DNA of 64,000 nt from NCBI GenBank assembly GCA_965178125.1, contig OZ237735.1:2728001-2792000 (forward strand). The letters run 5' to 3'. A model generated the notes under the pieces. That model worked only from the letters and a program-made list of their open reading frames with translations. It was not told where the DNA came from and made no database searches. Below are positions 4,362-63,066 of the stretch, in pieces (the first letter of the stretch is position 1; each line of letters opens with the position of its first letter). The stretch is from Bilabrum cf. latius (Eukaryota). The position numbers were made by a program, and so were the translations under genes.

Positions 4362-4396
<35 letters not shown>

Positions 4397-18705: not shown

Positions 18706-18781
18706 TCATCGGAAGTTCGCCCGGATCATGACATCCTCGAGATCCACCGCAGCCCTCGCAGGCTCCTTGCCCCGATCGATC

Positions 18782-18813
<32 letters not shown>

Positions 18814-21800: not shown

Positions 21801-24800
21801 ATGTGGTAGTCGGAGTGCCGCGGGCACCTGCTGCAAATATCGCCGCTGATTCCCCAGTTGCACTGACTGCTTCAGGTGGGCTCAAATCATCCAGGGCAGC
21901 CGGTTGGCTTTCGCTGGCTTCCACCCCAGCAAGCCAAGAAAACGTGCGGTTCATCAGGCTCTGCCTGCCCGCCTTTTGCTTGCGCTACTCTTGCACGATC
22001 TTCCAGCGATACCTCTGCAGCACCTTGAGGTACACCTCTAGCTGGTCCTCAATGTGCAGCTGCTCCATGCCAACGGCTCGCTGGATATGTCCGAACCGAA
22101 GGATGTGAGCCTCTCGCAGTTTCCTAAGCTCGGGCCTGCGATACCCCTCGAAGAACGCAGAGACTACCCACGAAAACGCAAACGCAACGAGAAGTAGACT
22201 CAGTATTATCACAGGAAACACATTCTCGGGCCGCAGGTAGTTCCGGAGCAGTCCTGCGTCCCCGACTGGGTCGACTCGGTTGGTGGTTGGTAGGTCCTGT
22301 CGCACCAGAGAGACAAAGTCAGAGAGATGTATGCTTGCGCAAATTGCAACCATACCCGACGCAGCTGTAGGATCCTGCTCGAATCGAATCAGAACTAGAC
22401 CACGCGAGGACTCCTGGTTGGTCACATAGCCGTTTCCATCAAGTGATCTGCACACGAAGCTGCTTTGTGAAGCACCCTCAGCAACGGGGATTCGGATGAG
22501 CAAGGGACAGTCCTGGTCCTGCACTTGCACCTCCCGCATCGAGTCAGCACTGGCCAGCGTGACCGACACGTAGTCCGATGATCTTACCTGTTCCATTCCC
22601 ATCAAGGCATCGAGAGCGTCAGCTGCAGCGAGAGGCGAATTGTCCCAACGAATCATCCTGAGGTCGATCGCATCTCCCTGCTGGCTCGCTGCTGCAAAGG
22701 CAGATGGGATCTCAGCCACAGATGCCTGCTGTGCTACCCCACCGCTGAAGTCTGCCGCTGGGATGCGCCGGATGGAAATACGTCCTGCACCCTCCAGCGA
22801 CACGGCCGACTCCTCCTCACCCGGAATGGTGTCCGCTGCAGCTGCGGCTGCCAGTCGCTGCACGGTGGCATCTGCCTGGCTACGCTACTGCAGGAGAACT
22901 TGATACAGCTGCGCAGCGGCGCCTCCCTGCTGCAGTAGCCTCCCGGTGAGGCGCCGACGGGACTCGCCAATCTGGACGGCTTCCTGCAGCAGTCCCTGAT
23001 TCTCACGATTGAGCGCCTGCAGCGATGTGCGCTGGGACTCCCGATCCAGGCGCAGCTCTTCAGAGGCTCCGAATGACTGCAGGAGTTCCTAGAGCCCCTG
23101 TATATCTGAGATGGCTGAAATGGATGCCTGCTGCTACTGCTGGCCCGCAATGACCTTGTCTAACAGGCCCGACAAGATGCTCTGCAGGCGGCGCCTGTCC
23201 TGAGTTGGTAGCTCGTTCGGGTTTGAATACAGACTGGAGATTACGGATAGCGCCTGGCTGGCTTCGTCAGGAGTGGCATTCTCAAGCTGCACGAGAGACG
23301 TGCGCAACAGCGACACTCCTGTGGAACGGACGGCCCGCACGTTCGCCAGCACGTCGTTACTGACGTCACACGCCCGCCCGCTCCATCCTGTCTGGCAGAC
23401 ACACGCAGCGCTGCAGGTCTAGGAGGCAGCCGAGTTTTGCGATGGGCTGCACCTAGACCCGGGGATCCGAATGCACGTGCCTCGACCGCTGCATTCGATC
23501 GCTGGGACCTGCAGACCAGAGCCATTCCGGGCAGCCTGCAGCGATGCACGCGTAACAAGTCCAGGGGATGAGCCGGGACACACGGCTGCAAATTGTTGAC
23601 TGGGATCCGAGGACACTCCGGTGACACAGGTCCCCCAGAAACATCTTGACATGGAGCCGGCACCCGCAGATGCTCTGCAGGCCGCCGACTCGCATTGTCG
23701 CGCGCGAAGTGCGTCGGCTCTCCGCGCTACCAGACCTGCCTGCTCCGCAATGCCCTGCAACTCCTACAGCACTGTCTCCAGGCCTGCATAGGCGAGCTAG
23801 GACTCGAGCTCGGACACATCGTCGCCGAGGGACTGCAGACCATCCTGGGCATCCGAGGTGGCATTCGCGAGTGCGGCAGCTGCTTGGCTCTAGTCCAAAC
23901 CAGCTGCTGGGCCAACCAGACGCACAGCTGCGGGTCGACCGGCGCTGTTGAAGATGGACGCCGTCGCAGCGCCTAGCTGATCCCGCACAGTCACGCTGAG
24001 GACAACAGCGGCTGAAGCATCCGGGTCCTACAGCAGGAGCGACCGCACTTCGTCTTGGACCTTGAAGAGGGCCCCTCCAGCGGCAGCCGACGGTGTGAAG
24101 GTAGATTGCAGAGGCACAAACACGGCACCAGGCAGTTGCCCCGTGGCAAGTCGATGCACTTCAGTGTCCGATAGCAAGCCATCCGCTGCAGCGATGGATG
24201 CCTCCAGCGGCAGCTAGTAGTACCCGAATCGATACGTCAACGGCTGTTGCTCAGCCACGTCTGTCCAGCCGCTGGCTTCAATCTAGAGGCCATCTCCCTG
24301 CGCTAGCACATCTATCGCGACATTCCCGACATCGATGAACCCAGAGGATGGAGGCGAGTTCGTCTCCAGATCGACTGAAGCCCGCACCCTCCACTGTCCG
24401 CTGGAGCTCGACACGGTCACAGTACATGTAAACGTTGCTCCTGCCTCAAGCCCATCTGGCCGGATAACGCCAAAGAGCTGCTTGCCGGGGCGCTCGCCAG
24501 CGCTCAGCACGCCCTTCAGCGGTGCTGTGTCCCCACTCCGCCTGACGACAAACTGTACCAATACATCCGTGCCGCCCAGGAGCTGGCCATCGTCCTGCCC
24601 GGGAAGCTCCTCACCGGTAACCGCATCCACCAGCCCGCTCTCAAGCACGACCCGGCGGGTGGGATTCACCAGCGTGCGACCCGGTGTATCCGGTGCATCC
24701 GCGGTTTCCACGAGTCTTGAGGAGTCCGAGACCTTGAGCAACACTCGAGGGGGAGCAACTGCGCCGGTACTGGGCAGAGCAGCACCCACCACGGCATACG

Positions 24801-27800
24801 CGCGCCTCTGCACCAGCCCAAGCGGAAAAGGATCAGATAGTAAGGCACTTGGGTTCCGTATTACGGCCAATTCAAACACAAATATCCCCCCTGGGACGAG
24901 CGCCCCGGCAGGCAGCGACAGGACAGGGCCGCGAGCCGAAGTCGTGTTGACGGCCGAGCCCAGCAGCTGAGCCGCAGTCTCTACAGGAGGCAAAACATCA
25001 GGTGTGGTTAAATTCAGCACATCTGGGGCCATAGGGTGAGTTGTATTTCCAAACGTACGGTTGTCCATGCAAGCCGACCCCTCAGCAAAAGCTAGTGTTG
25101 CCGACCCGATCGAGCCTATCTCCTCGAGCAGCATGTCCTGCCTCTCATGCAGCGACACCCGCCGGCAGCGCCACACAAGCTGCAGGGGGGCAGTAGTCAG
25201 ATCTAGATCGGCAGATTGCCCCCTTGCATCCAGTCGCAGGCCCTTTGCCGGCTATACTACTCGAGAAGCGCCCCCCGCGATGCCCGCGACCAGACCCGAG
25301 GGCCGGACTTGCACGGACACGTCCGCGGCGGCGGAGAGCAGCGCAGACGTCGAGCTATTGCCGGACTGCTGTGAGGTGACGCGTTGCCGCACGGTCGCTC
25401 GAAATGCGTACGTCCTACCCGGACGCAGGCTGCCAGCTGGCAACCGAAGGATGCGCCCGCCGTCCCTGGTCACTCGAGCAAGCGACGCGGCCGGAAGCCG
25501 CACGGCTGGCAAGCTTCCATGCGATACGCCTGTTGTGGGCTGTACCATCTGATTTACCCATGTCACATTCGAGTCAGTGACCTGACCAGACCCACAGGGT
25601 GACGCCCTCACCGTGACGGCCAGTTCAATAGGCGCCAAGGAGTTCGCAATCGCTACAGAGCCGCCCTGCACACTGATCACTGGCACTGGGGTGCTCACCC
25701 TGCGAACAGTCACCCTGGCGGTACCCACTGCGGTACTCAGGAAGTTCGCAACAGCAACCTGCAGCGTGATGCTCGATGCGGAGGCGGTTGGGGCGAAGGG
25801 CAGCGACACGCGAGGCAGCCTGCCAGAGGAGCCAGCCAGGTGCGCGGACACCGCGTCGATCTGTGAGCTGGAGGCACCAGGCATCGACACGAGAGACCAC
25901 TGGAAGCGCAATGGACGGCCGAGGCTTCCAAACGATGCCTCTGCAGTCGTCTCAACCGTATCGCAAGGCCCTATCTCTGCCGGTGCCTGCAGCACCGGCG
26001 TCGCCACTACCACTGAGGCGGGCGGCGGCGGCTCAATCAGCACGCATGCAGCCGGCATAGAGTCAATAGCGAATGGAACAGGTCGAATGACCCCCGAGCG
26101 AAACAGCAGCTACGACAGCGGGTGTTGCTGCTCTTGCCCATCGCAAGACGAGCCACCCGCCCAGGGGCTCTGCGGGACAACAGTAGCTCCTGGACCCGGC
26201 AGCACGTCGATCGTCCTTTCCCCGGAGAAGCGACACCAAGACGTCTGCCCCTGCACGCCAGAGGCAGTGGCACCAAGCGATGTGGTCACATTGTTGAGCA
26301 GCAGTGAGCACGGCCCTGCCTGCAGCCGCTGCCCCCCCTGCGTCACGAGGAAAGGATCGACGCGGCCGGCTAGCGTGACCCGGATGCGGCCCCCGCTGGG
26401 GTTGAACACGGCTGACTCAATGACCGGAGGCGCGGTCCTGCCCTGCAGTGTGACGGTCCCCTGTACCGCCCTGTACTCGAGCTACTCGTCCTGGCCTTGC
26501 GGCTGGGTGGCCGCCCGGAGCCCCATCCCGGTCCACTGCAGGACCTGCCCAGCTCTCAGTTTCACGCGGTCCGGCGGCACCACGACCAGCACAGACACAG
26601 ACTGCCAGGCGCAGAACGCCGGTGACTCCATCGCATCACCAAGTGTCTGCTGCAACGACTTGGAATTGAACACGGCAGAGCAGCGGAAACCGCTCTGCCG
26701 CACGAGTGGGACCAGCCCTGTCGATGCAGCCTATGAGGAGAGCGATGGAATGCCATTGAGCACCCGCTATCTCGCCATGTTGGTGCCTCGGTCGAATCGA
26801 ATGACGGCTGCCTCCGCAGCGTCGAGTACCCTGGCCTCTGCCACTTGGGGCGCATCCACGGGAACCACCACCAGCTGGCTCTCGATAGGCAGCACCAGCT
26901 CGAGCACCTGCACCGACAGCGAGACAGGGTCACCAATGGAGGACGTGGCCCTCGATCCAGCCGCAACCTGCGTGGCTGTGTCGTAGTTTGGATCTGCACT
27001 GGACAGTGATACTGTCAGCCTGGATCCGATCTGCTGTCGGCCTTCAATGGGCAGCGGGCGGGCGGACCGCACGAAGAACCTCGCGGGACTCTCCCATGCC
27101 GACTGCGTCACGACTCGCGACAACGGTTCAACTTTCAGACCGTACTGATCCATGGACTCCGTGCTCATCCGGATCGTTACAGGGTGTAAAGGCGCAGTCT
27201 CAAGGTAAATCATGATCGATTCCGACGTTGCTTTGTACCGATTATAGCCTAACTCAGAGTCCAGTTCCTCCTGCCCGACAACCGTGAGACTTTGTGGATT
27301 GATGCGGATGCCCGGACGGTCCACGTCGGCCAATGGCGCATAGATGAGCCCCAACATCGATGGATGCGTGGCAGTCACCAAACCGTAGTACACAGGGTCA
27401 GCTGAGCTCTCCTGGACCAGCGCCGACACGCGCACAGCGCTCCTATTCGAACCAAACAGCCCGTCGGGAAGAGTGGTTAGGACCGAGAGCTGGGGCACAT
27501 TCCAGTTGGACGGTGTGAATTGCATGCTCTGCACGCTAAGCGTGCTGATCTTCTCCTCCGGCAGAGAGTCCTCACCATCCACGAACAATTCCACCGTGAC
27601 CTGGTACTCCGGTTCGCTCGACAGCGATAGTCCGATAGCAAACACCGAGCCCTCGTCCCAGGGATCGCCCCCTGGGGAGAGTAACACGCTCTAGTCGGGT
27701 GCTTCTGGGCGCCCTGTGTCCTGCAGCACTGGCAACTGCCTCGGGCTCACGGCTGCAATCACATCGTCGATCTGCTCCTGACTCAAACCGTCCGTACTGA

Positions 27801-30800
27801 CTCTCTCGCCCCGCAGCACCAGGCCGGCGTAGTCGTCCTCGATCTAACGAAGCTCCACCCGCGTGCTTGCCAGCACTGCGTTTAGAGGATCAACCACATC
27901 GAGATTGAAATCCAAGCCGGGGCATGCTCCAGCAGCAATCTGATCGCCGGGCAGCTGCAAGTGCACGGGGATGGAGATAGGCGCATTGAGTCTTCCGGCG
28001 GGTATTGTGGACAATAAGAATCCTGGAGCTGTGCGATCGACCACTTGTCTCCAGTCTTGGCCCCTTGCGTTCAAAGGCAGCAGTGTGGTGATACTGCAGC
28101 CAGGCGTGGACGACTGAGGGCCACCCGCAGACACGAATAGCCTCAGACCCTCCTGAGCCACCTCGCGGGTTAGCGAGACATTCAGGCGAAGTAGAGCACC
28201 TTCACTCGCTTGCACGGTGGCGAGTCCATCCGCGTAGTTATCGCCAGCAGGACCGGTTGTCGTCGATTCTAGGTTGAACAGTATCCCAGTAAACCCCTGG
28301 ACACCGGCTGGAAGCTCGTCGAACTTGACTGCACGAACCCGGTCCCTGTCGCCCTCGAACTCAAACACAGCCACCACGGGCAGCTCAGGTCGGGGAGTAG
28401 CCGATCTTTGAGGCTAAACGGTGGGCGCGGAGCTAGAGCTAGCAGCTACGCTAGGGCTGCTTGATGGTGATTGTGACGGTGTCGGTGTCGGTGTCGGGGT
28501 CGGTAGGCTGGTTGGTGATGACACCCTGCTGACGTTCAGCTTGAAGAGGTTTACCTCCCCTTGATTTGATAACTTCAGCGGGGATCCAACTGCAAACCAT
28601 ACAGATGTGCTCTGGAGGTCGCTCGATTGTTCCTTGCGATACACACCAACGGATTGACCGAAGTTTCCGTCTAGTGTAACGATGAGACTGATAGCATAGT
28701 TACCCTGGGACAGAACTCGAAGTGCCTCCACCGTGCCGCCGGCCTGCATCTGCAAGTAGTATACTGCACCAGACTAGCCGTCTATATTACGGTCCAAGTC
28801 GTGACCGGGCGCCCCGACCAGCAAGTCCTCCACTCCAGAGCCAGTCGTGTCTCCGATCGTGCTCACAGCGGTACCGAACCGCTCGTTGCCCTTGAAGCGG
28901 GTTCCGCTGATCCCGCCACGAACATTGGAGACTTGTTGCCCATCAATCACGGTTCCATTTGCGTCAAGACTGGTCACGAATATGCCCCCTCCATTCCCAG
29001 CGTTCAATCCATTCCCGGGCGCACCAACGATGAGCCCTCGCACCCCTCCGGAATGGTAGGGCAGTGCTGCCACGGCTATTGAGCTGCCGAAGTCTCCGTA
29101 TATGCCGGGCGGCTCTCCACGAGCGCCAGAAAAGAAGTAACCACTCGACACTGTCGTAGCAATGCGCTCGAAGCGACGCACCATGTCGTTGCCTCGTAGG
29201 AACAGCAAGAACACGCTTCCTTCAGACACCCCGTCTTCGTCATCCGGCGCACCCACGCCCAGATCGACAAATCCGTCGCCATCAATGTCGCCCAACTGCT
29301 CGATGACACTCCCAAACTTCGATCCGGATGGAACGGCTCCGCTTGGCAAGCCACCGATCCCGTTCCCAATCTCCTGGATGCTGCTTGCGTGTCCTGTCGC
29401 ATTCACGCGATATATTGCGATGCCATACTGTGCACTCTGGCTCAGATCGAACCCGCATGCAATTCGGTGCAGCGAGATCTCTTGGCCGCTTGTCTAGCGG
29501 TACCCGGAAACGCCTTGTCCGAGCCGGACGAACTGCTGCGCAGCAGCTTGCAGCCCAGGTGCGGTGGATGCCGCAATAAAGAAAGAGCTTTTAGGCCGTC
29601 CATCCGCACCCATCAAGAACACATCGACTCGTCCATACTGCCCATTGAGCTCGAAGCGCGGTGTGGACACCGCCAGGTCCATGGTGCCGCTGTCATCGAC
29701 ATCTCCAACCACCGATACAACCGAGCCAAATTCACTTCGGGGGCCAGAGTGCGAGACCGGCTCGAGGGGCGCATCTGCCGTCAGTACCGCGAAGTCTTCC
29801 TCTGGAACAGGCGAGACGGAAGGCGTGGGCGTGGGCGAGACGGATGGAGTTGGAAGTGGGGTTGACGATGGCGTCACGGATGGGGATGGTGTCGGTAGGG
29901 ACTCTTGAGCTGGGTTGGTGCCCGCCCGGCCTTGCGCTAGCTGCACTAGGTACGTGGACCCCTGAGATAAGCTGATGAGCACGTCAGGGATTCCATCCCC
30001 GGACACGTCACCGAGCCCGTTGGAAATGCCAGAACCAAAGTTGATGGGCTGAACTAGGCCAGCGATACCCAATGAGTCCTGGAAAATCTCAGAGTAGTGA
30101 AGCACGGCCGCATCCTAGTCCAGTTCGAAAATGAACACCGAGCCGCAAGCATTAGTGCTATCGCATCCTGCAAATGTCCTTCCAGGAACGGAGACTGCAA
30201 TATCTCCGTACCCATCGCCACCGATATCACCCAGCCCACCGGCAGCCTATCCAAAGAAGTCATTCGTGTTCCACATTCCAGGAGGAAGCTGCCTCCTGAT
30301 GCTCACCGACCTCGCCACTTGACCGGGTGACATGACACCTTCGATGTTCCGTTTCTGCAGGAAGACGACATACACCTCACCCACATTGGTAAATTGAACA
30401 GCCTCTGGTGTACCACTGAACAAGACGCCCTGGTTGGGATCACTGAGCAGGATCTCGTCGTAGCCATCACCATCCACGTCTTGCTTGCCCAGGCGGCGTC
30501 CAGCCGAGCTAGTCAAGCCGGAAGCGACAGAACCACGAGAAATATATACAGGAGATTCAATCGAGGCAGTTGGAGAGCGCACTGCCACCAGCCAGAACCC
30601 GGCCCTCTCACTTATGGCCATCCAGGTAGTGCCCAGTGACGTGCTGTTGCCGAATTGCAAGCGTAGGATCTATTCGCCGAAGAACGTCCAAGATGTCAGC
30701 GCAGGCGGGTTCTCGTTGCCAAAAGTCTGCATGGATTTCACCGTACCTGCCCGCGTCAGAAGCAACAGATGCGCCTGGTAGTCTCCGAACCGTTCTCCCA

Positions 30801-32547
30801 CAACAATGTCCGGCACGCCGTCGCCGTCTGCATCGCCCGCGGCAGCCACCCCATGGCCGAACTCCTAGATGGTGACGCCACTGGGGAGTGCAGATGCCAA
30901 CCCACCGTCATCGAGCGATATCGCTTGCACCGCTCGGATTCCCTTGAAGCCCGGCTCCATGAACAGGATGAGCAGGGCCCCTGTGTTGGTGCTGCTGCTG
31001 ATGTCCCTGTACCAGTTCCACGAGCACGCCCAGTCCAGATGCCCGTCATTGTCAACATCGCCTACTACGTCGCAGGACCGAAGCATCATGAACCTATTGT
31101 TCTGCGTTGCCCCTGCATCCGCTAACACCTGCATGGTATAGTCGAACTCAATCGCGGCGCCAAACGGTGACCCAGTGCTGGGAGCTGCCAGGGACACTAG
31201 AGCGAGAGAGCCCTAATTGGCCGGATCGTCCGATCCACCGGAGAGTCCAACGGCTATGTGCACCCTGCCATCTTCTCGCAGACCTTGGATGCTTGTGATT
31301 GACCTGCCAAAGGCCATCACACTGGCAATGCCTGGGCCCAGCCCTGCTGTTAGGCGATCCAGCTTGGTCAGCACCGCCACCGGCATCGCCCGGCTGGTCA
31401 CGATAATCTTCAGGATCCACACAGCCCCGCTAGCGCCGCTACTAGCCGAGTCATCCCCCGGCGCAGCCACTGCCAAGTCGTCGAACGAGTCCCCGCTCAC
31501 ATCGGGAATGCGCGCCAGGCTTTCTCCAAAGCGGTGACCGGCAGCGAGCGCGGCAGCCGGCAGTCCTCCCCGCCCGGGCTGCACGAGTGTGTACGCATCC
31601 ACCGTGGCGTTCGGTAGCAGATCGACCACTACTATAGCGCCCTGCCCGGGCCTCCCCGGTGCCTCTGTGTTCCCCCCGCCGATGGCCAGCCTGGCCCCGA
31701 ACCTGGCCCCGCCGCTCGAGTCCAGGATGCGTGCGATGGACGTCACGTCGGTGCACAGCCCATCCACGCTCACTGCCTGCAGATCCAGCCCCTCGAGTCC
31801 CTCGGAACCCTACGTACTGATTCTGACGATGCCTTTGACTGTATCATTGCCGTGCATGTACAAGATGCGCAGCCGGCCTGCCCCACCGGCGCCACCCGGT
31901 GAACACACCGCCAGATCATTCAGGCCGTCTTTGTCAAAGTCACCGACCGATGCGGAGATGCTATGGGCAAATAGGGCCCCCGTGTCTAGTTCCCCGTCGG
32001 GGATGCCGCCCATGCCGCTCGAGAGCAGCGTCTGGTGCACGGCGTGTCCAGTGGAGTTGATGCGAGCCACCAGGAGGGCGCCCATGGGCTGGCCTTCCTG
32101 CTCCCAATCCGGGGCTCCGACCAACAGGCGGACGAGGGAGGGATCGTCCCCGTTTGGTTGCCGCATCGCGGCCAATCCAGCTCCGAACGAGTCGTTCCTT
32201 GCTAGGCGACCATCGATCGCAGAAATGTATTCCGGCTCGAGCGACCTCTACGACTTCACTGTCCCATTCGAGTGCATTAGGAGCAGAGTCACTCGATTGA
32301 GTTGCAATGAGTGAACAGCAATTTCGTCCGTGTCGTCTCCATCAATATCTGGAACTGGCGCTGTTGTGGAGCCGAACAGCTCACCGGGCTCCAGGTTATC
32401 GAGTTGGAAGCCATCCTCGCTAGTGCCGCCAATCGTTGCTGAAGACACGACAGTGGTCCACGGCTACGGCTATGCGGATACGCCCAAACAGGAGACCAAG
32501 CCAATAATGGTTACCAATACTGGCCACATAAAGTTGCGCCAAAACAT
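18706..32547 (-). CDS. Giant (4613 aa) polycystin-1/REJ-like membrane receptor with N-terminal FG-GAP (integrin-alpha type) repeats
   Basis: A single intron-free frame of 13842 bp with about 35 TAG and no TAA/TGA. In order: signal peptide MFWRNFMWPVLVTIIGLVSCLGVSA, many DxDGDGxxD-GAP repeats, Pro/Thr/Ser linkers, REJ-type motifs (LRLDARGQSADLD, WTD..QPLTYRFGY), EGF-like CSGRGTC..CVCQTGWSGRAC, GPS site CASIHLSDF, and transmembrane segments with HMWGSIF..TRPQRL. Confidence 0.85.
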
Positions 32548-33453
32548 CCTCCCAGCCTCCGAAACCGGTTAGCTTGAACGCCTTGCTCGAACAGAGGGGT
32601 CACCGATGAAACGCGCGATTGCAATCGTCCTTGTATACACTGGTTGGAATTCCAAGGCGTCCTTGTCCTTCTCAGCGCCTGTTTGCTGCGAAAAGAGATA
32701 GGGTTGCGGCAATCACTGGCAGTCATGCTGGCGTGGAACGCCCCCTGCCCTCAAGATCACGCGGTACATTGGGAATCTCAGTGAAAGCCCGGGAACTAAA
32801 ATCAGTGGCACGCGAGATCCTTAGTCGAAGCAACTGAACTACTCTCGTGCACAAACGACAACCGTCGTTGGTACCGTGGCGATCAGCGAAAGGCAATGAG
32901 ACAGTTTGGCTGGATGCTCAGGGCTCATCACTAACCTAGGACACAATATACACGATACTGAATAATGCTTTTGAGGGAATTCGCCAAGATACCTCAGAAG
33001 CTCGGAAAATTGTGGCCAGGAAGACTACATTCGCGCTGTCGGGTCGGAAGAATCCGCTTGGTCGCAAGGGGAAAATTTTTGCCTTTAGACTGTATTTATG
33101 ATTGATGTACTGCTGCAGCACATATTTAGCGTACGGATTGTACCTTGTAGCCGTGCAGATAACCAGAAACGACACGAATGTGGCTGGGATAGACATCATG
33201 ATGAACCAATGCTTGAAGTAGCCTCGAATATATGCGAAGGTGGAGGGTGAGTACAGCTCTGGGAACTCAAGTCATCATATAAATAAAGATAAATTTCCCG
33301 TGGTGATTTCGATGCCTGCCTGGGTGGTATAGCCGTCCGGCCTGAAAGATTGTAGTTTACATCATTCATTCTCACTCTCATTGCCATCTTTGGGACGAAA
33401 CATTTAGTGTTTCTGACCGTGTCCCGCCGTTCTAGCTCAGAATATCGAATTAA

Positions 33454-36120
33454 ATGTCTCTCTTTGGGGATGACGATGAAGGCGGCGGGGCCCTTTGGGA
33501 AATGGATGGTATGGTGCAGGAAAGGTAAGCCTTCCGCTGTTGGTAATCGACGCCTACGCAGCTCAACAAGTTTGAATAAGGACCCCACCGCGATAACTTT
33601 CTCAAGTGCAGTCGCTTAGTAGATATGTTGCTGGGAGATTCTGGGTCGTTCTCGCTCAACGATGTGCTGGACGAGGACGACGTAATCCAAGAGCTCAAAG
33701 GAATGAATCCTGCGCTGCTCGAATTGTAAGTCCAAGCCTGGCATTGCTCCGATCGCAAACATAATTTTAAATATCCATACTAGATCATAGGTTGCTCTGG
33801 CACCCGCAGTTTTGGTGCAGAGGATACCTGCAGAAAGCTTGCAGAGCTGATCGCCGAACCAGCTGCAACGGCGGACACCAAGCGTGCGTTCCGGTATCCT
33901 CACATGGCCACTCAAGTTGTTTGCAGCGGAAGTGAGCCCATCATGCGAAATTTGTGCGACGATCACAAGGGCTTGGTTGACATCCTCCTGCAAGGTGTTG
34001 CGCAGCACCGGCCGTGCAGGCCATACCTGGCGGGGTACATCGCAAAATCGGTTGCAGCCATTGCCGCTGCCGCCCCCGCAACTGTCGCGAGGGCTGCAGC
34101 TCGCACAAAGGGCCTCGGCGCATCGCTGCTCTGCTAGCTGGACAACGGCTCGCTGGCCGACCTCCTGGAGCTGCTGCTGGGCCTACCTGTGGTCGCCCCT
34201 GGCCCTGACCCTTTCGAGGATGAGCCAGGCTTGGGCTCTGTGTCAGGGGCAGAAGAATCGACGTGGGCAAAGGACGCGCCCAGAATCTGTGTAGACCCAC
34301 CGTCAGCCTTCTTGCCCGGCATCATTGGGCATGCTACGCAGGGGCCGGGGCAGGGGCAGGGCGTGGAGGTCGAGGGCGAGGGGTCGAAGCCCGAGGCAAC
34401 GACCGTGACAAGCAACCCTCTTGCTGCCGCGGAGCTATGGATGGCCAGGAGAGGAGGCAAAGGGTCTTTGTCCGATGCCGCTGCAGCTGTCAGCTGTCTC
34501 AGCGCGGACAGCCTCGCAGACCCCGAGGTTTAGCCCGTGCCCGTGCCGCTGGCTCGCTCCTATGCGGCCACGCATGCCAGCGCGATGCTGGACCGGTGGG
34601 TGTCTAGGGGTCTCTGCGTGCCCCATCAGAGTGCACTCCTGCGATCTGCGAGGGGTGACAGAGACCTGTGGAGGCGGCTTGAGGGAGCTGCTGCATCGCT
34701 CTGGGAAGGCGAGGGACCGGGGACACCAAGATCAGTCGCAGCCAGCACGGCCGTGGACCCATTGGTGCTGGGCCCGCCGCCTGCCGCCTCTAACGACTCT
34801 GGGGGGCTGGGTGCGCCCCTGCCCACAGTTGCGATGACCACCATGCTGCACAACCCGGGGGTGGCCGATGGCCTGGCTGCCGCGGCGAAGCGGGCGCTGG
34901 ATCAGGCGGTGAGCCTGCAGCAGGCGTCTGGGCCAGCAAGCGCTCCGGGGGCAGCTCTTAGCATTGGGGCCATGCAGGGGATGGCAGCCGTGCGAGCATC
35001 AGCCGAGCTGGCGCGATGTGATGCTGCCCTCGCCGTGGTGGCATCGTTGGCAAAAGCAGCGACGTGGCTGGCTGGCGGGCGGGCAGGGTGCTGGTCGCAG
35101 CACCAGACCTTGCTGCGGCTAGCCAGCACGGGACCCATCGCACGATCCGGACCGCCCCTTGAGAGCAGCAAGGGCGGCAGAGGTGCCGGCAACGGGGGTA
35201 ACTCGAGACTGCAGGTCGTGGTGGAGACGGGGCCGCAGCAGTCTCGCAGACGGGCTGCGGATGCTGCGGCATCAGCAGGTGCATCGTCCAAGCCTGTGCC
35301 CCTACTGGTCGCCCTGGCCTCCGAAGTGCTGCCTTCCAGCGCTTCCTTCCTGCGGGCTGCTGCTGAGCACGCCCGCCAGTTTGCAGAGAAGCGCTACGCA
35401 GAGGCCAAGGAGCAAGGAAGACCGGTGCGAGCCGCGGAGCCGCAGGCTGGCAGGTTTGGGGCCCCGTCGTTCGGGGCCATCGGGCTGCGGGCCCTGCAGC
35501 TGCTCTTTAGCACAGCCGCGGCAGCGCAGCTGCCAGCGATTTGGGAGGGCGTGGAACGCAGCGGCGCGCTGGTGGCCGCTGTGGGCGCGTTCGAGGCCTA
35601 TCCCTGGCACTCGCAACTGCACGTGATTGTGGAGGCAGGGCTGCGGGCGCTGCTCGAGAAGGGCACTGACGCGGTGAGGAGACACGTCATATTCCCGAGC
35701 GAGGTGCCGGGTGCAGCAGGGGCGGGCGGAGCGGGATCTCCTGGAGGGTGTGCGCTGCCGGCTCGCATCATGCGTGCCTTTGATGTGGCTGGTGCCCCTC
35801 GCAGCATTGCAGAGCTTGAAATGCCGCCGAGAGAGCGTGAGAAGGCCAGGCCTGCTCTCAGGATTGGGTACTTGGGCCACTACCGATAGCTGGCAAACTG
35901 CATCGTGTCCCTGCCCGAGTGGAACGACCGACTCACGAGTGAACTGCCCGGATGGGGCGACTTTGTGGACGGTGCACTTGCCATTGCCAATTTACTGACG
36001 AACGAGCAGGTCGGTGGGGCGGTGCCAAGAGGGGACGGCGGTGCGAGTGCCACGACTGGCGGGGGACCCATGGTGGACGAGGTGGCAGCCATGGACACCG
36101 ACACAGCAGATGGAAGCTAA
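33454..36120 (+). CDS. SIT4/PP6 phosphatase-associated protein (SAPS family); introns 33525-33611 and 33726-33809
   Basis: The spliced N-terminus FSLNDVLDEDDVIQELKGMNPALLEFF..KRAFRYPHMATQVVCS and the C-terminal RIGYLGHYR[TAG]LANCIV match SAPS blocks. Three internal TAG; ends in TAA. Confidence 0.85.
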
Positions 36121-36208: not shown

Positions 36209-39200
36209 TCATACCCCGGTAGCACCGGTTGCAAGTGTAGCAGAGGCATGGTCGCTTCTCCACCGAGCAAGCAATGCATCCCCTGTGCCCGCGATCGGCC
36301 GCGCAAAGGGGTTCATGGGCTAGGTTGCAGAACTGCCTGAACGGTCGGATGGTCCGGTTGAAACACCGATTCGCCGTGCGGCTTGCAGCTCAGCAACATG
36401 GGGCGACAGGACGCTCCTGCGCCCTAGAGTTCCTGAGCCGTCGAATCGACCTACTGAGCTACCTAGCAGCACAAATCCAGACGCAGCGCGCTCAACGCGC
36501 CGAGCCTTGTGCGGGCGCAGGTGCACGACACTCCCCGATGCACCTCGTGAGGACGACAGACTAGAACCTGCTACCTGACCGCTGCCTACCAGGGAGCCAA
36601 GGTGGCCAAGGCCAGGGAGCGTGCCTGAGCCTGCCAGCCTCTCCCGAGCCTGCCCGTCCTGTACCAGACCAGCAGCAGCTAGTGATGCTGGGCTCGTCAA
36701 GGAGCGCGAATTTGCCTGCGATTGGGTGGCTGCGCTGTTTCTCGCCGAAGGAGCATCCGGCCTAGCGGTTGCTGGCGTACGCCTGGTCTTCCTGCGCACC
36801 CTGATGGGCTAAGGGTCGTCCTCAGGGTCTTCCACTAGCTCTGGATGCTCCTCGAGGGCCGAATCCAGCACGCTGTCCATGAAGCCCACTGCCTGGTCAG
36901 GCACTGCAGCACCCCTGCTGCTGCCCCTGAGCTGCTGGTCGATCGCATCAGGCCCACCATCGCCATCTCCAGAAGAGCTGGAAGCCGCATCTTCACCAGT
37001 GTCCTCCCTCGCGCTGGCCCTGGACAAAGATTCCTGCAGTATCCTATACTTTGCAGCACCAGGGCCGACAGGTGCAGCGTCCCCGGCTCCTTCTCCTTGG
37101 CCGGGAGCAGTTGCACCGGCTTGGCTGCGACCCTGCTAGGCAGCACTCGAAGAGGCCGAATACGATGCCGCAGCACTTGACGCGGATGCAGGCGCCATCA
37201 ACCTCCCGGCTTGGTCTGCTGATGGCTCATATGCCTCCTGCGCAACAGCGCCAGCGATGGATTGTGCCTCCACTGCAGCAGCTTCAGCGGTTCGAATCCT
37301 TGACACGCCTGCTTTGCGCCTGCCTGTGGAGGCTGATTCCCTCCCCCTGTTCCCCTGCCTCTGTCCACTAATACGCGAAATGCTTTGCGCATCTTGATGC
37401 TACTGCATCTGCTGCTGCTGCTGCTGCTACTGCTGCTACTGCTGCTGCTACTGCTGCTGCTCATCAAATTCCATGGGAGGCGGCCTCTCATACCGAAAGA
37501 GCCCCCTGAAATCGTCTCCGGAGGTCTTTGCCCGCAGTGACGGGTCAATCAGGATGCGTCGTTGAATCACTGTCTTCCATACCTGCCGGTGGTATACCTT
37601 CTCCTCCACAGTACCAGCGCTGATTAGCCGCAGCACGGTTACCGGCTTGGTTTGCCCGAGGCGCCACGCCCTCTCCCTCGCCTGTGCGTCCGTGGAGGGG
37701 TTCCAATCTGGGTCGAACAGCACCACGCGGTCTGCACCCTGTAGGTTGAGACCCACTCCGCCCACCCTCGTGGTGAGCAAGAAGAGAGAAATGCTCTCGT
37801 CTGCATTGAACTGGTCCACCAGGGCCTGCCTGTGCCTCACGCCGGTAGACCCATCCAGCCTGAGGTACCTCACAGGTCCCATAGGACCGGGCGCGCTGTC
37901 ATCGCTGTCTGACTCTGCAGCGGCCGCCGATGCAGCTTCGCCTGAGCGCTTCTGACTACCCTATACTTTGGTGCCGTCGTCCTTCTATTCCACGTCACCG
38001 TCCGACTCCGACTCCGATCCTGACCCAGCCGTAGCCCTGCTTCCTCCCTTCTGCTTCTTCGCCGCCTTCCTTGGCTTCCTCTTCTTCGGCGCAGCATCCT
38101 CGTCCAGCATCCCCTGCGCGATGAACTCCTCGATCAGGTCCAGCATCTAGGTGCCCTGGCAGAACAGCAGGGTGCGGTGACCAGTCTTGCGCCAGAGCCG
38201 CAAGATTTCCCGTAGCACAAGCAACTTGCCCGCATCGCGCCACGAGGGGCCCTCAGCGCCAATCCGGCGGTACCCTGGCACCGAGTCGGGGTTCCAGCGG
38301 CTGTACGCATTTCCATACGACCCGCTATATCCGCCACGACCACTGCCCCTGCCACTACCGCTCGAGGCCTGCGCTGCCCCTCCCATCCGAAGCAGGTCGG
38401 GATGATTGCAGATCTTCCGCATCACCGTGAGTGCCCGGAGCGCCTGGTTGCGCCTGTCTAGCACCCCGGCCACTTCGTCCGACTGCAAGAAAGAAAGGTA
38501 TAGATCCTCCTGCAGAGGTGACAGTCGACAGAAAACCACGCGCTCTCGCTTCTGCGGGAGCTGCTGGGCCACCTGGCGTTTACGACGCCGCAGAAGCAGC
38601 GGTTGGAGCGCCTCTCGTAGCGCGCCAGCCCTCTAGAACGCCGTGGCCGCCGTGGACGCGCTTGCATTCGTCACCGCCCCCTGCGCGATGGGCTGTGCGT
38701 AGTGTGCCTCGAAGGAGCCGAGGTCTCCCAGGCGGTCCGGCACCGCGAAATCAACCAGGCTCCAGAGCTCCTGCAGCGAGTTTTGAAGCGGGGAGCCGGT
38801 CACTAGCAGCTTATGCCTCGCCTAGACTCGCTTGACGCAGGCAGTGATTGCAGCTGCCGGGTTCCTGATCCTGTGCCCCTCGTCTAGCACCATGTAGTCC
38901 CATCTAGAGTCGCCGAATGAGGCCTCTGCCGCCCGCAGTCCAGAGTACGTCGTGATGATTACGCTACCCCGCAGCGGCACCCTCGGCCCTAGGGCCCCCT
39001 CTGTCCTCCCCTCTCCCAGGGGACCCCATCTGGCCCTCGCCTCCCGCACCACGCGGTCCGCGCTCCAACCGGCCACTGATCGCGACCTTCCAGACTCGTG
39101 CCACACGTAGAACCGCACGGTCGGCGCCCATTTCCTCAGTTCCGCAGCCCACTGAGTCACTAGACTCGCTGGTGACACCAACAGCGATGGACCCAGCATG

Positions 39201-40543
39201 CCACTCAGCTACAGACCCTGTAGGAAGCACGCCAGCTGCACGGTCTTGCCCAGGCCCATCTCGTCCCCGAGAATGCCTCCCTGACCCTTGCACCTGAGCC
39301 CCCACAGCCACCTCAACCCGGCCCTCTAGTACCGGTACAGTGCCCGCCAGGTCGCGTCGGGCACCGTTAGTCCTCTATGCTCGCACCCGGGCGCTCCCGT
39401 GGGACTCACTTTGCGCAGGACAGGGGCCCGCATGGCACCCCTCACCTGCTCCTCCAAGGGGACTGGCGGTCGTTCGCCACCTTCCTCCTCCTCCCCACCC
39501 GCAGCCTCCTGAACATGCTCCCTGTAGGCCCTCCGGAGCGTCCTGGCGAATCCTTTGGCCCTCCGCACGAATGCCTGGGAGTCGGACGCGTCCTGCACTG
39601 CACTGCCGCGGGAGCCGGTGGCACGACCTCCGACGATGGCCTCGTCATCCAGGTCTTCAAAGTGCACCCCATCGCTGTCCTCGTCCTCGTCCTCATCCTC
39701 GCCATCTTTGCTCCCTGCGCAGTCGCCCTTGCCTTTCCCCTTGTTCTTGGCCTTCCTCCTGGCCGATGGCCCCGCCCCGCTCCCGGAAGCAGCGCCAGCC
39801 CTCAGGCTACTGCCCTTTCTTCTTCTTGGACCTTTCCCCGATTCTTTTGATTCCTCGTCGCTGTATGACTCCTCGTCCAGCCCCTCAGGCAAGGAGGGCG
39901 CGCTGTAGGCGGCCGTGCTGGAGGCGTCATCTGCTGCCGGGGCACTGCCCTGTCGACGGGAGCGGAGCCTGCGGCCCTGTGCTGGAGGGGGCATTTGAGC
40001 TGAAGAGGACGACACTACACGAGTCTGGCCTTGGCCTACCTCATGGAATTGCTCGGCTGCTCTCCGGCGTCTACCTGCGGACATGTCGTTCTCGGGTTCA
40101 TCCTCGTCCGAGGCCTCGTCCAGCCCCTCATCATGCCTTCCCAAGTCCTACAAGTCATCGACCATGTCTTCCTGAGTACGCTTGCGCTTCTGTCCCGCTG
40201 CTTTAGCTGCTCTGCCGCTCTCTCGTCGCCTTTCTTGCATTCGTTCGTCTCTGAGCTGGATGAGCAGCTGCCTCTTCACACGTAAGCGGTCCAGTTTGGA
40301 CCGGTCCACTCGGTGCCCTTTCCTTGCAACCTTCATTGCTTCTTGCACCGCTCTTAGCTCAATAGATACCTAATCTCTGACCTTGGCAAGCACCGCGGCG
40401 ATCGCCTCTAGGCTTGCGTGAGTCCTCACTCCGGTGCTTGCAGCGGCATTTGCCTTCTTGCGCACCTGGTCCTCCACCAAGCTCGCGGCCATGCTGGTAG
40501 CACCTAGCATGCCGAGAGCAGCACCTAATCTATCATCGTCCAT
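36209..40543 (-). CDS. ERCC6: SNF2-family helicase, ERCC6/CSB/RAD26-like (1444 aa)
   Basis: Motifs LYRY[TAG][62 protein letters not shown][TAG][16 protein letters not shown] and [22 protein letters not shown]. One frame with about 16 TAG, ending in TGA. Confidence 0.9.
37400..37459 (-). repeat. Poly-Gln tract of mixed CAG and TAG codons
   Basis: The minus strand reads CAG CAG CAG TAG CAG CAG CAG TAG CAG CAG TAG CAG x6 ATG CAG TAG in the helicase frame. Confidence 0.9.
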
Positions 40544-40740
40544 GGATAGTTGCACAATAACAGCTTGTACCTCAGGTGGAATAATGCACACGCATTGAGC
40601 AGCGCATTGCAGCCAAATGACGAGTGTGACAGCTCGGCAAGAAAGGTGTGCCAGCACAAAAAGAAGCAGTGTTAGTCGCCAACCATTGCGTGGCCGGATT
40701 ATATCTGTGCTACTGCTCCGGGATAGAGCCGCCTTCGTGC

Positions 40741-43406
40741 ATGATTCGAGCGCCTGTCCGTCGGTTAGCGATGTCGGCCTCGAGTATTGCTTCGGCGGCA
40801 TAGCGTATGTACGCGTTTCAATTGGTACAGAAATTCGGTGCCAAGCACGCCCTCAGCTTCTGTCTGCCGGAGCTGAAGGCGGTCATGCTTAACTATGGAG
40901 TTGATCCGGCAGCCTCGTTGGCATCAGTGGATGATATATCGTTCCCCGGCTGGCCGGTCGTTTTCGCCCGACTTCCCGACGATGCCACAGCAACAAAGAT
41001 ATGCGAATAGGTTATTTTATGTCATAAAGTGGGCGAGGTCTTACTACGTGGAGACAGTCCGGCAGATTTGAGCCAGTAGATCCGGGAACCAAACTCGATC
41101 ATCGGGCAGCAACAGGTGGATCGCTTGCGCCAAATAGCCGAGGGCCGCCCAAGCTTTCGCACGCGAGAGACTAAGTTTTCTACCGTCCCGAACTCGCTCC
41201 GGTTGTCCAGCGCTGGCCATGTGTATCTTCGGGAGCCGGTTCTGAACGAGATGGTGGCGCAGTGCGGCTTCGGCGGGTGCAAGGTGCAGCTGAAGGATCC
41301 CGAATGCGCCCTCGAGCTATGGGCCAGGTGTGAGCCCACAAAGGCTTCTGGCGATAGCAAGTAGGCTGTTAAATCGTCAGCCGTCGCGGGTGCCGGTTCG
41401 AAGCCGGCAGCTGCAGGTGAGGGTGCGGGGGAGGCGGCAGCGAGCAAGGCGTCGTCCATGCCTTCCGAGCTGGAAGGGCTGAACCACGTGATGCTGCTGC
41501 GCACAGTGGGCCGCAGTAAGCGCACGGAGGTGCTTAAGGCGCACAGCCTCAAGACGCGCGCCTTTCTGGGTCCCACCTCGATGGATCCGGAGCTTGCTCT
41601 CGTCATGGCCAACATCGCCAGGTGCAGGCCGGGCACTCTGGCGATGGACATGTACGGAGGCACGGGGGGCATCATGCTGGCGGCAGCTCAGCAGGGCAGC
41701 GCGGTGGTTGGCTGCGACATCGACTACCTTGTGCTGCGGGGCAAGGCCGGGAGGGACGCCAGCACGAACTTCAAGGACCAAGGGCTCCCTAGGCCCGACT
41801 GGCTGCTGTGCGACGTGAGCAGGCCCCCGCTGCGGGGCGACGATGCATTCGTCGCGATGCGGGCCACCTCTAGGGCGGCTGACCTGGAGGGGGGCAGGAG
41901 GCCGGAGGGCAGCAGCAGCGGGAGCGGGAGCAGCAGCGGGAGCGGGAGCGGGAGCGGAGGGGGGAAGGGAGAGGGGCTAGCCGAGTGGGCCGGGCTGCAG
42001 GGGCCCAGGCTACCCGTTCAGCCGCGCATGGGCATCGACTGCATCGTGACAGACCCTCCCTATGGCATCCGCGCGGGCGCGAAGTGCGTGAGGAGAGAGG
42101 CAGACGAGGCGGCGGTACCCATGCCCGAGTCGCTGAGGCGCACGCACATCCCGCGTAAGGCCAACTTCCGGCCCTCGGACATGCTGTTTCGGATGCTGGA
42201 TTTCGCCGCTATGCACCTGCCGTCCGGGGGTCGCATCGTGTACCTGCTGCCCGTGACCATGCGCCAGCATGAGGGCCAGCTGCCGGCACACCCGCTGATG
42301 ACGCCCGTGGCATGCGCCTACAACAAGCTGGGCATGGCGCACGGCCGGTTCATCGTGGGCATGGAGCGTCTCGAGGGTCCCTACGACGAAGAGAAGGCGC
42401 AGGCGGGGGAGTACCGCCGCTTCTTTGATGAGAAAGCCTCTAAGAGCGGGATCAACTTCGATACGCTGCCCGAGGACCTGCAGGCCGTGCGGGAGGACGA
42501 GATGGCCAAGGGCGTGGAGGCGCATCGGGCGGCGGGGGCGGCATCGGGGGGCGCTGGCAAGAAGAAAGCGCTGAAGAAGAAGAAAGGGAACCAGACAAAG
42601 GGGCTTAGTGCCTAGGGAGAGGCGAGTGCTCCGATGCAGGACAGCGACGTGGACAGCGGCGAGGAGGAGGCCTCTGGTGCAGCAGTTGATATGTCACAGA
42701 GGAGGGCCCGTCGGCTGGCTGACATGAAAAGGCGCAGGGCAGCGCGGGCTGAGGCGCGGAAGGGGCCGGAGCAGGGGTGGGCCGGAGCTCGGGGCAAGGT
42801 TGGGGGCGGGGCAGGAGAGGCAGGGGTGTAGGATGGGGATGGAGATGGAGAGGCCATGCCTGCGGGCAGCAAGCGGAAGGCAGGCAGCGCCTCTGGACCA
42901 TCTGCGGGGGTGGAGGAGGGCGCTGAAGGCGGGTCTCGGCCCAGCAAGCAGTCGAGGGTGTCCTCCGGAAAGGGCAAGAAGGTCTACGAGAAGGGCATCA
43001 CGGGAGAGAAGGGCCGAGCCAGGGACGTCGTGTCCATGATGGCAGCAGCCAAGGCAGCGGGGCGAGCGGCCGAGGATGGGGCTGACCTGCCTGGCAGGGG
43101 ACCAGGGCTGGCTGCTGCATCTGGGAGCGGCGGCAAGGTGTCAGTCCCCGCGGGTGGCTTCCTGCGGCCAGATGGGGGCCTTAACGTCTCTGGGGTCAAG
43201 TTCGACAGGGCCGATCCGCTGGCCCAGCCGGTCACTGTGCACAGGTCCGTGCCGCTGTCGCTGTCGGTGGCCACCGCTGGCAGCGAGGTGGGGTCCGCGG
43301 GAGACGCTGACCGGCGAAAGTTGCTTGAGGTGGCAGTGGTAGAGCTCCCGTTCGTCTCGTTTGCGGGGTGTGCGAGTCCTGTCCCTGCCTCTGCCTCTGC
43401 TCCAGC

Positions 43407-46344: not shown

Positions 46345-48238
46345 TTATTCGGCCAGGAATTCGGCTTCAATCGTGGACCACTCGTCTACAGGGTCGTCTT
46401 GATGCCTCACAGGGGTGTCCTCTGGCATGTAGCCCGCCTCGACCCACGCGAGCATCTGGGCTGTGCTGAAGGGGCCCTGGTGTTGGCCCTGCTTATCGCG
46501 GTACGTCCACACTGGAGCGGTCTCGTCTTCCTCGTCTTCCTCTTCGCCTTCAGCACCAGCATCTGCCGGCTCGGGGGCTGCATCGGCCGGTACCACCCCG
46601 TTGGCCTCCGCTGCCGGAGTCTCTGCCGATTCCACTGGCTCAGGCGCGGCTCCGCTCGATGGTTCATCAGCGGCACCACCTCTGTGCAGCAGCGCAGCCG
46701 CAGAAGGAGCTGCCGCCACCTCCCTCGCTTCCACGTCAGCTTCCACGTCGTCCTCCTCCTCTGCCTCCTCGGGCAGTTCGAATGCCTGTCCCACTGTCTT
46801 GAAGAACCCGAACTGCTCCTGGTCCCTGTGCCTCAGCGGCTGCTCTCCGGGGAAGTGCCCAGCCTGCACCCACTCGTCCATCTGCTCGGTGCTGAAGGGG
46901 CCCTGCCCCCGCTCCTGGGCGTCCTTGTAGAACCACACCGGGTCATCGGGGGCGTCGAAGGCAGCATCCACCAGCGCCTCCCATACAGGATCGTCTTCTT
47001 CCTCTTCTCCCGCCTTTTCCTCCGTATTCAGCACCTCTTCAGCCTCCTCCTTCGCTGATTTTGATGCTGATGCTTCCGCTGTTCCACCGTCGTTAATGGA
47101 TGCCGCCGGAGGCTCCCTGGCAACGCCCTCGCCCACCACTTCGCCTGCTCCACCCTGCGCCGCCCCACCCCCGCCCTCCTGCTCCTGCTCCTGGATCTTG
47201 TCCTCCGCCATGGCCAGAATGTCCTCCACCGTCGAGTAGGATTCCCAGCCGTAGTGACAGATGAGCAGGTCTTTATCCCAGAAAAATCCAGCCGAGAACC
47301 ACTGCGAAAGTATGGAAGGGAACACAGTGATTGTGGGCAGAACAATGACGAAACACCTCGTGCAAGGCGCAGCTGTGACCCTCGCACCACGACGACAAGA
47401 CCCCTCTGGTCTCGCCCGAGAGCGCTGCCAGCAGTGCAGTCCTCACTTTGTACATCTTCTTGCCCTCAAAGGGCCCCTGCTGCTTCTCGTCTGCGTCGAT
47501 GAAGTACCACTGCTTTCCTTGCGCGAAGAAGTCCTTCACCCAGGGGGTATACCTCTTGATCTCGCTCTGGCTCACCATGCGGTCCTCGGGCTTGGACGCA
47601 GCCTCGGCCACCTGGCTGTCGCGAGCCGCCTCCTGCTCGGCCTGCTCGGAGGCACGCAGTGCGGCGGCCTCTTCCTGCGCGGCCCGCTCCGCCCTGTCCA
47701 TATCCCCGCTCCTCTCTGCCTCTGCCCTCTCCCTGCCCTTGGCCAGCGCGCGGTGCTTGAGCCTGGCCGCCTCCAGCTGCTTCTGCCGCCGCTCCTCCAG
47801 CGCGATCCCTGCAGCTGCTCGCATGACATCATCGGCATTATCAGGCAAAAATGCGCGGTCATCCTCGGGGAACACGTCGCGGAACTCGCTCCAGGTGCTG
47901 CCCAGCTGGTTGGCCACGCCCTGGGGAAAGCTGGAGCCGGGCTGAGGGGCGGCCCGCAGCAGCATCTTGTCCGGGCGCAGGTACCCGCTATCTAACCAAT
48001 GACGCATTTGCTCCCATGAAAACGGACCCTCTACTTTCGCGTAGTACCATAATGGCGCGTCGGCACCCAATCCTTTCGCTTGGGGGTGCTCGCTAAATCC
48101 TCGAAAGCAATTGCGGCAAATCGTCGCTCTCCAATGGTTAGGGCGGAAACTGAGACAAGCACGTGGTGCCATTCTACCACTTGGGGTGCCGGCGGCAGCC
48201 GCTCCCGCTTTGCTGCGTTTTCCCGTCGTCGTAGACAT
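46345..48238 (-). CDS. Protein with four GYF-like domains and an N-terminal Cys/His motif; intron 47302-47446
   Basis: Four copies of W-x-Y/F..GPF..M..W..GY/F. Splicing joins GPFEGKKMYK to WFSAGFF. The N-terminus has CLSFRPNHWRATICRNCFRGFSEH. Ends in TAA. Confidence 0.8.
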
Positions 48239-48818
48239 GGCTCGGTATGCAATTCCTGCGCACGGGGCGATTGCCAGCACCAATGCAAGAGGATGGGCTC
48301 AGCTTTGGCGACGGAAGTGATTTCATATATCATGAATGGTTGTACTGTGTAACCATAGGCGCCAGCTATGCAGAGACCGTGGTATAAAATAGGTTGCACA
48401 AACGACTTCGAGCCGTTTGAAGCCGTGGAACGGAGCCCGCCCATGGAGTAACACGCAAACGACCACCTCAGCGATGTACCCATGACCAACGAAATAATCG
48501 AATCACGAGCAGACCCAAACTCCGTGGCTTGTCCTCAATTACCCATGAGCTTGCTCCGGGTCAGTAGCGGCTCTGGTGTCTTGCTTGCAAAACTTCTACA
48601 ACCATTCAGACACTTCTTCCACAAAGATTAATACTTACTCGATTCAAAAGCTCGAGAAAACTTAAGCAACCGAAGGGATCAGGCGCTACCAGTTGATTCT
48701 GTGAATTGGATCGCTTCTGCTTGCGACCACACAACAAAATATCTTCATCTTCAAACATAGGTTACAACCGTTCCCGACCCAAAATTTCTTCGTGCACAGT
48801 ATTTAAGTCCGTACAAGT

Positions 48819-62942: not shown

Positions 62943-63066
62943 CGAACATAGAGAACTATATCTCCTGACGAGTGCGAAAGTCGCATGGCATTGATGAGGA
63001 ATGCCAGCCACCACAGCCGTGCATCATCAAATGTGATGCACACACACCCTCTTTGATCCGCCTGCC

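Follow-up and report, generated by a model that had tools for sequence, protein, structure and literature searches.

TAG codons on conserved glutamine sites of an ERCC6/RAD26-type SNF2 gene point to UAG being read as glutamine in a GC-rich eukaryotic nuclear genome

The stretch of DNA analysed here, hereafter the window, comprises 64,000 nucleotides of contig OZ237735.1 (positions 2,728,001 to 2,792,000 of the forward strand, assembly GCA_965178125.1), deposited under the name Bilabrum cf. latius. Between positions 36209 and 40543 its minus strand carries a predicted ERCC6/RAD26-type SNF2 ATPase gene encoding 1,444 residues, with 16 TAG codons in frame, two of them at glutamine sites of the ATPase core. 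Comparison with homologues makes it very probable that UAG is read as glutamine in cytoplasmic translation of this organism. It also appears probable that TAG alone has been reassigned, with UAA and UGA (mostly UGA) remaining as stops. The gene and its TAG codons are listed below; residue numbers count the methionine at 40543, numbers in P0001 are one lower (406 = X405, 799 = X798), and L001 and L002 are orthologous loci in metagenome contigs.

36209..40543, minus: ERCC6/CSB/RAD26-type SNF2 ATPase gene, ATG at 40543-40541, TGA at 36211-36209, 1,444 codons, 16 in-frame TAG
40370..40372, minus: TAG, residue 58; GAT in L001, 6/12 neighbouring residues identical
40148..40150, minus: TAG, residue 132, MVDDL-TAG-DLGRH; CAA in L001, 10/12 neighbouring residues identical
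39326..39328, minus: TAG on the glutamine of the SNF2 Q motif, residue 406; CAG in L001 and L002
39209..39211, minus: TAG, residue 445, LQGL-TAG-LSG; CAG in L001
38822..38824, minus: TAG, residue 574, KRV-TAG-ARH; CGG (Arg) in L001
38633..38635, minus: TAG, residue 637, TAF-TAG-RAG; CAG in L001, 12/12 neighbouring residues identical
38147..38149, minus: TAG on the glutamine before MLD, residue 799, FCQGT-TAG-MLDLIE; CAG in L001 and L002
37961..37987, minus: two TAGs (37987-37985, 37963-37961) in an acidic/basic insert between the helicase lobes; 4/150 orthologues align
37397..37459, minus: CAG/CAA polyglutamine (polyQ) tract with four TAGs (37450-37448, 37438-37436, 37429-37427, 37402-37400)
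36320..37138, minus: three TAGs (37138-37136, 36811-36809, 36322-36320) in the poorly conserved C-terminal third

When TAG is read through, positions 36209 to 40852 form a single stop-to-stop frame of 1,547 codons that holds the 16 TAGs but neither a TAA nor an internal TGA. The standard code splits the gene into 17 pieces of at most 273 amino acids, the ends of which are these TAGs. The ATG at 40543-40541 is likely to be the start; the methionine and the first 17 residues of the protein are identical in the orthologue L001 of a related organism. No intron was detected in the SNF2 gene, and none is visible in two further window genes described below, the G6PD-hexokinase and SF3A2 genes; all three are colinear with their homologues. 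On the predicted protein, Pfam recognizes SNF2-rel_dom (PF00176, 2.4e-67, residues 404-716), spanning TAGs, and Helicase_C (PF00271, 8.3e-20, residues 890-962). The best PDB matches are the Rad26-type chain 8he5_O (1.7e-125), human ERCC6 (5.2e-123) and yeast Rad26 (2.9e-121), and in the same search ERCC6/Rad26 chains score 410-424 bits compared with at most 258 bits for the best other SNF2 subfamily. The window protein resembles human ERCC6/CSB and yeast Rad26 in both ATPase lobes and in the YQ, RQMLD and RLGQ motifs, but differs from them by a charged insert of about 90 residues between the lobes, the polyQ tract, a long low-complexity tail and 16 glutamines that would be encoded by TAG. From homology only, we infer a role in transcription-coupled repair with RNA polymerase II.

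The helicase core, with an X for each TAG, was searched against 1.84 billion cluster representatives (E ≤ 0.001), and residues were counted in the best 150 of 91,243 matches, aligned pairwise; the closest of these 150 orthologues is 54% identical. The glutamine of the Q motif contacts the adenine of ATP. A sequence-only reading of the window had placed the TAG at 39328-39326 on this near-invariant glutamine and the TAG at 38149-38147 on the glutamine before MLD. Both codons indeed lie in frame on the minus strand, and tabulation of the orthologue residues bears out both placements, with glutamine dominating either column: Q in 150 of 150 orthologues at X405, and Q in 93 of 148 at X798 (followed by K 12, S 7 and I 7). 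The PDB alignments agree, as the two TAGs face glutamine both in the Rad26-type chain 8he5_O (dYQkt, tRQMLD) and in human ERCC6 (kYQqt, sRQMLD). Both are accordingly best described, as far as alignments can predict it, as ordinary glutamine codons at conserved glutamine sites of the SNF2 ATPase. The other three core TAGs fall in variable H/R/K columns in which glutamine is the second or third commonest residue (of 150 each: H 61, Q 19, S 14 at X444, residue 445; R 59, K 31, Q 17 at X573, residue 574; K 74, R 34, Q 20 at X636, residue 637), and at the remaining 11 TAGs of the gene few or no orthologues align reliably. Glutamine reaches at least 11% in all five core TAG columns compared with 24 of 442 non-glutamine columns, and its mean share is 0.40 in TAG columns, 0.37 in CAG columns (n = 20), 0.53 in CAA columns (n = 4) and 0.031 elsewhere (n = 442). 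Summed over the five columns, the profile log-odds are +8.3 for Q, -1.8 for K, -3.7 for R and -4.6 for H; when checked on five random columns of an ordinary codon, this procedure recovered the true residue in 85% of trials.

When the SNF2 core was used to scan metagenome contigs, 21 loci emerged. L001 and L002 are among these and match the window gene at 71-73% identity in the best segment; as they agree with each other in 954 of 955 residues, they were counted as a single witness. When TAG is taken as sense, L001 reads as a single frame of 1,320 codons that contains 17 TAG and no TAA, whereas the standard code leaves 301 amino acids at the longest. The window and L001 proteins agree in 731 of 1,250 aligned residues and have no TAG column in common. 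Columns were taken as well aligned when at least 7 of 12 neighbouring residues were identical; 638 columns qualified, 15 of them with a TAG, and the TAG at residue 58 was left out because only six of its neighbours are identical. Opposite the six window TAGs in this set, L001 has CAA, CAG, CAG, CGG, CAG and CAG (5/6 glutamine), the CGG at residue 574 being one of two non-glutamine partners in the comparison; opposite the nine L001 TAGs, the window has CAG, CAA, CAG, GAC, CAG, CAG, CAG, CAA and CAA (8/9 glutamine). A glutamine codon is thus found opposite TAG in 13 of 15 columns, compared with 6 of 602 opposite non-glutamine codons, and ordinary glutamine is conserved in 76% of well-aligned columns. 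Codons for Glu, Leu, Lys, Tyr or Trp are absent from the 15 partners. When substitution frequencies were estimated from the window-L001 alignment itself, the log-likelihood of the TAG identity was -10.3 for glutamine, -42.5 for histidine, -53.2 for arginine and lower for every other residue. The TAGs of L001 include the glutamine of RLGQ (motif VI; CAA in the window), that of QELWSL and two positions in VAQQLP. Between related species TAG is freely replaced by CAG or CAA and vice versa, and the related organism represented by L001 shares the same code. Since TAG faces glutamine codons across species, it behaves as a synonymous glutamine codon in at least two diverged organisms.

The same pattern extends over the window, which is densely coding with a GC content of 59-70%. 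Treating TAG as sense changes the longest frames from 1,027 to 4,620, 2,998, 1,547, 1,345, 1,288, 1,219, 1,104 and 1,008 amino acids, whereas treating TAA as sense lengthens hardly any frame. The frame of 1,345 amino acids is antisense to the G6PD-hexokinase frame of 1,288 and has no Pfam match. Eight large frames (14,337 codons) contain 88 TAG, 508 CAG and 136 CAA, so that TAG makes up about 12% of the glutamine-type codons. The codons flanking TAG are of glutamine type in 23 of 176 cases (13%); next to CAG the share is 12.2%, and next to eight other codon sets it is 3.4-7.8%. TAG also breaks into polyQ runs: the SNF2 gene has QQQXQQQXQQXQQQQQQ, and the 2,998-residue frame has HXQQQQQQQQQQQ. 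TAA does not occur in frame in the 14,337 codons, although about 24 would be expected if TAA:TAG followed CAA:CAG = 136:508; for L001 the corresponding numbers are 0 and 10.7 (P ~2e-5). Usage differs between genes: the TAG share of glutamine-type codons is about 2% in the G6PD-hexokinase gene, which has a high GC content at third codon positions (GC3 0.85), and 10-20% in the SNF2 and TRM11 genes and the giant frames (GC3 0.66-0.75), a pattern expected of a minor codon.

Several observations speak against a change of TAG alone to glutamine. TAA was treated as a stop when the frames were delimited, and for both frames that end in TAA (33730-36120 and a GYF-domain frame at 46345-47442) the C-terminus lacks confirmation by homology. 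A tRNA scan within the 64-kb window gave no genes. Without the two conserved-glutamine columns of the SNF2 core, the profile cannot separate K (3.0), Q (2.8) and R (2.3). The TAG column of G6PD holds S 51, Q 10, N 8 and A 8 among 101 homologues, and the TAG of an ADP-ribosylglycohydrolase gene faces Glu in three distant bacterial chains, two of them near-identical. For the SF3A2 gene (60231-61028, plus strand), 120 homologues have E (103) or D (17) opposite the TAG at residue 29 and L (119) or M (1) opposite the TAG at residue 31, and glutamine occurs in neither column.

No TAG columns other than the two SF3A2 positions are clearly at odds with glutamine, and these two lie in a locally divergent helix. 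The protein deviates from the 90% consensus in 20 of 97 columns, four of which (27, 31, 34 and 35) fall within residues 27-35. An in-frame intron of 54-60 nucleotides (GT at 60264, AG at 60317 or 60323) that would remove both TAGs was rejected because the stretch matches the conserved N-terminus (DRQNR..SK.G.GG..S) of the 120 homologues. Probably both TAGs reflect real substitutions to glutamine, each a single base away from GAG or TTG. Two other places say little in either direction: only 3 to 6 of 79 matches align over the three TAGs of TRM11, and the interval 12089-12469, a copy of 18702-19100, contains no TAG.

Among other explanations, the one that survives best is a context-dependent code in which TAG means glutamine inside genes and stop near some gene ends; we nevertheless consider it very unlikely. 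Such codes occur in some ciliates, according to a part of PMC11687900. Because TAG did not count as a stop in delimiting the frames, a gene ending at TAG would escape notice, and the last TAG of the SNF2 gene (36322-36320) is followed by 36 unconserved codons only. On the other hand, all 14 frames that are large or carry a Pfam domain reach TGA (12) or TAA (2) without using TAG, and the TGA-ended ones include the G6PD-hexokinase and SF3A2 frames, where homology reaches the ends. Sequence conserved in L001 follows downstream of at least 13 of the 16 SNF2 TAGs, among them the TAG at 37138-37136, which precedes a conserved block. TAA and TGA never occur in frame, which indicates that dedicated stops exist.

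That TAG encodes a different amino acid (Glu, Leu, Lys, Arg, Tyr, Trp or pyrrolysine) seems highly improbable. There is precedent, as UAG = Leu is documented in other protists, one rhizarian and three ciliates being named in parts of PMC5304391 and PMC11687900, and UAR = Glu is given for peritrich ciliates in the latter. The SF3A2 TAGs, one facing Glu or Asp (103 + 17 of 120) and the other Leu (119/120), the Glu opposite the ADP-ribosylglycohydrolase TAG and the mostly H, R or K residues at three SNF2 core TAGs would also fit it. However, the Q-motif column is without any residue but Q among the best 150 orthologues, CAG or CAA partners account for 13 of the 15 columns with no Glu, Leu, Lys, Tyr or Trp codon among them, and every other residue is at least 32 log-likelihood units worse than glutamine; TAGs inside polyQ runs point the same way. 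The sequence-only reading had favoured glutamine over Leu, Tyr, Trp and Glu, in line with the log-odds of +8.3 and the partner codons. It had also favoured glutamine over pyrrolysine, and here its claim holds in part: alignment alone cannot tell the two apart, whereas the exchange of TAG for CAG and the TAGs in polyQ tracts would be left unexplained by pyrrolysine.

Editing of TAG to CAG in the mRNA under a standard code is scarcely credible. Among the sequencing runs that contain the gene none is shown to be RNA, which would leave room for it, but at least 88 precise edits would be needed in the window. Because no TAG column is shared, the related organism would require a different set of 17. 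We know of no such U-to-C editing system for nuclear mRNAs, and TAG evolves like a synonymous glutamine codon.

A pseudogene, sequence errors or TAGs in unrecognized introns, suggested by the 16 breaks that the standard code puts into the SNF2 gene, have a negligible chance of being the cause: the frames are interrupted by TAG only, never by TAA or TGA, the TAGs stand in the middle of conserved motifs in gapless alignments, the same pattern recurs in every large window gene and in the orthologue of another organism, and contigs of other studies are identical. As to the last point, 12 public runs from 7 studies contain the SNF2 gene in whole or in part, under the labels A to F, 'protist metagenome' and 'algae metagenome'. 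Four runs from three other studies provide contigs across the TAGs of the Q motif and of the MLD motif, with no differing letter; these four runs were compared as contigs, which gave no informative joint, and the best-matching runs, possibly the source of the window, were left out. Identical contigs from other studies mean that the TAG letters are not an assembly slip. The SNF2 gene occurs with identical letters in runs of several studies under at least four different coded organism labels, a spread that suggests contamination by, or co-culture with, this organism.

The DNA of the window is nuclear and belongs to an intron-poor eukaryote with a high GC content; its eukaryotic nuclear genes include, besides the ERCC6-type SNF2 gene, SF3A2, GINS Psf3, TRM11, G6PD-hexokinase, DHHC and GYF genes. 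The G6PD-hexokinase fusion (54845-58267, plus strand) is one uninterrupted gene of 1,140 amino acids with a single TAG. The fusion is also present in Cafeteria and in many metagenome proteins; a literature search on it brought up nothing of use. In a 47-row G6PD tree, the window sequence falls in a 6-row clade with Cafeteria and fused forms (Shimodaira-Hasegawa-like approximate likelihood ratio test, SH-aLRT, 99), which is nested in a 17-row clade of fused forms (SH-aLRT 98). Eight of the nine organisms among the named best matches of TRM11 are stramenopiles, those of SF3A2 are mostly diatoms plus one oomycete, and the named SNF2 matches are mixed (brown alga, green alga, glaucophyte, weevil). 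These single-gene comparisons tip the balance towards a stramenopile affinity near bicosoecids and Cafeteria. A public prediction of 373 amino acids, P0417, shares 94% identity with the last 353 residues of the window TRM11 (40807-42516). Its start is an internal methionine downstream of the TAG at TRM11 residue 186, as standard-code annotation of a close relative would produce.

Further features of the window were noted. An intronless frame of 4,620 codons (18706-32568, minus strand) encodes FG-GAP repeats, a REJ domain and C-terminal membrane-like segments and contains 35 TAGs. A second copy of its 3' end lies about 6.6 kb away (12089-12941, matching 18702-19100 and beyond), with 300 nucleotides at 100% and 100 nucleotides at 96% identity and a frame that yields a near-identical C-terminus. 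The frame of 1,104 amino acids contains, at 15346-15513 on the minus strand, a coding 42-nucleotide unit repeated four times in tandem, with repeats of the type HTRSTPRGKAGGQQ; the repeat search lists this unit as three overlapping 84-nucleotide copies at 42-nucleotide spacing. A perfect 64-nucleotide tandem duplication is located at 63065-63192, at the 3' end of an ILVD/EDD-family dehydratase gene, and the nearest atlas clusters of the TAG-free ILVD/EDD fragment are all bacterial-type. The GYF-domain frames at 46345-47442 and 47273-48298 (minus strand) overlap by 170 nucleotides in different frames and both end in TAA; they may represent one gene with a small intron or a frameshift. Rfam at gathering thresholds gave no matches in the window.

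Glutamine tRNAs are natural near-cognate readers of UAG, and an amber-suppressing tRNA-Gln(CUA) works in bacteria. By analogy with known cases, a tRNA-Gln with the anticodon CUA, one base from CUG, would read UAG and leave UAA unread, and eRF1 would have lost recognition of UAG and kept that of UAA and UGA. The logic of a tRNA(CUA) reading UAG without UAA is laid out in a part of PMC11687900, which also reports suppressor tRNA(CUA) genes for two UAG = Leu genomes.

Codes that split UAG from UAA in meaning are rare. They matter because they show that the two codons are separable, both mechanistically and evolutionarily. If our reading of the window is true, it supplies one more independent replicate in which to study how eRF1 comes to lose UAG alone. 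In practical terms, annotation with the standard code shatters the genes of this organism. A literature search for a nuclear code change in stramenopiles or bicosoecids found none, with most subscription journals outside the search, and the change probably occurred in a lineage without one on record. We see roughly an even chance that it represents the first nuclear code change of stramenopiles, in GC-rich, intron-poor heterotrophic flagellates related to Cafeteria with UAG = Gln, UAA and UGA retained as stops and UGA as main stop; this would amount to a further independent origin of the rare UAG-only reassignment. The clade would then comprise the organism of the window, the strain with 94% identity and the more distant species of L001, and the organism would sit in public runs under other labels, with its proteins truncated by standard-code calling.

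Among known variants, NCBI table 6 (ciliate, dasycladacean and Hexamita code) translates both UAA and UAG as glutamine. The window agrees in UAG = Gln but differs in that TAA is never sense (0 vs about 24 expected; 0 vs 10.7 in L001), and table 6 was rejected for the window, as neither its frames nor L001 contain an in-frame TAA. Code 15 of gut phages such as crAss-like phages, treated in a part of PMC9523058, corresponds formally to the table proposed here (TAG = Gln, TAA and TGA stops), but the window genes are eukaryotic nuclear genes and not those of a phage. The closest counterparts are eukaryotic. Iotanema spirale (Fornicata), as described in part of PMC5304391 (Panek et al. 2017), uses UAG for glutamine with UAA and UGA as stops; it is alike in the UAG-only change to glutamine and apparently in keeping UAA as a stop, but probably belongs to another supergroup and has UAA as its primary stop, whereas UGA ends 12 of 14 frames here in a genome of 62% GC. 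The phyllopharyngean ciliates Hartmannula sinica and Trochilia petrani, according to a section of PMC11687900 (McGowan et al. 2024), also read UAG alone as glutamine and use it widely as sense, but prefer UAA as a stop, whereas the window prefers TGA. To these cases the window would add a different supergroup, a GC-rich genome, UGA as the main stop and at least two diverged species with the code.

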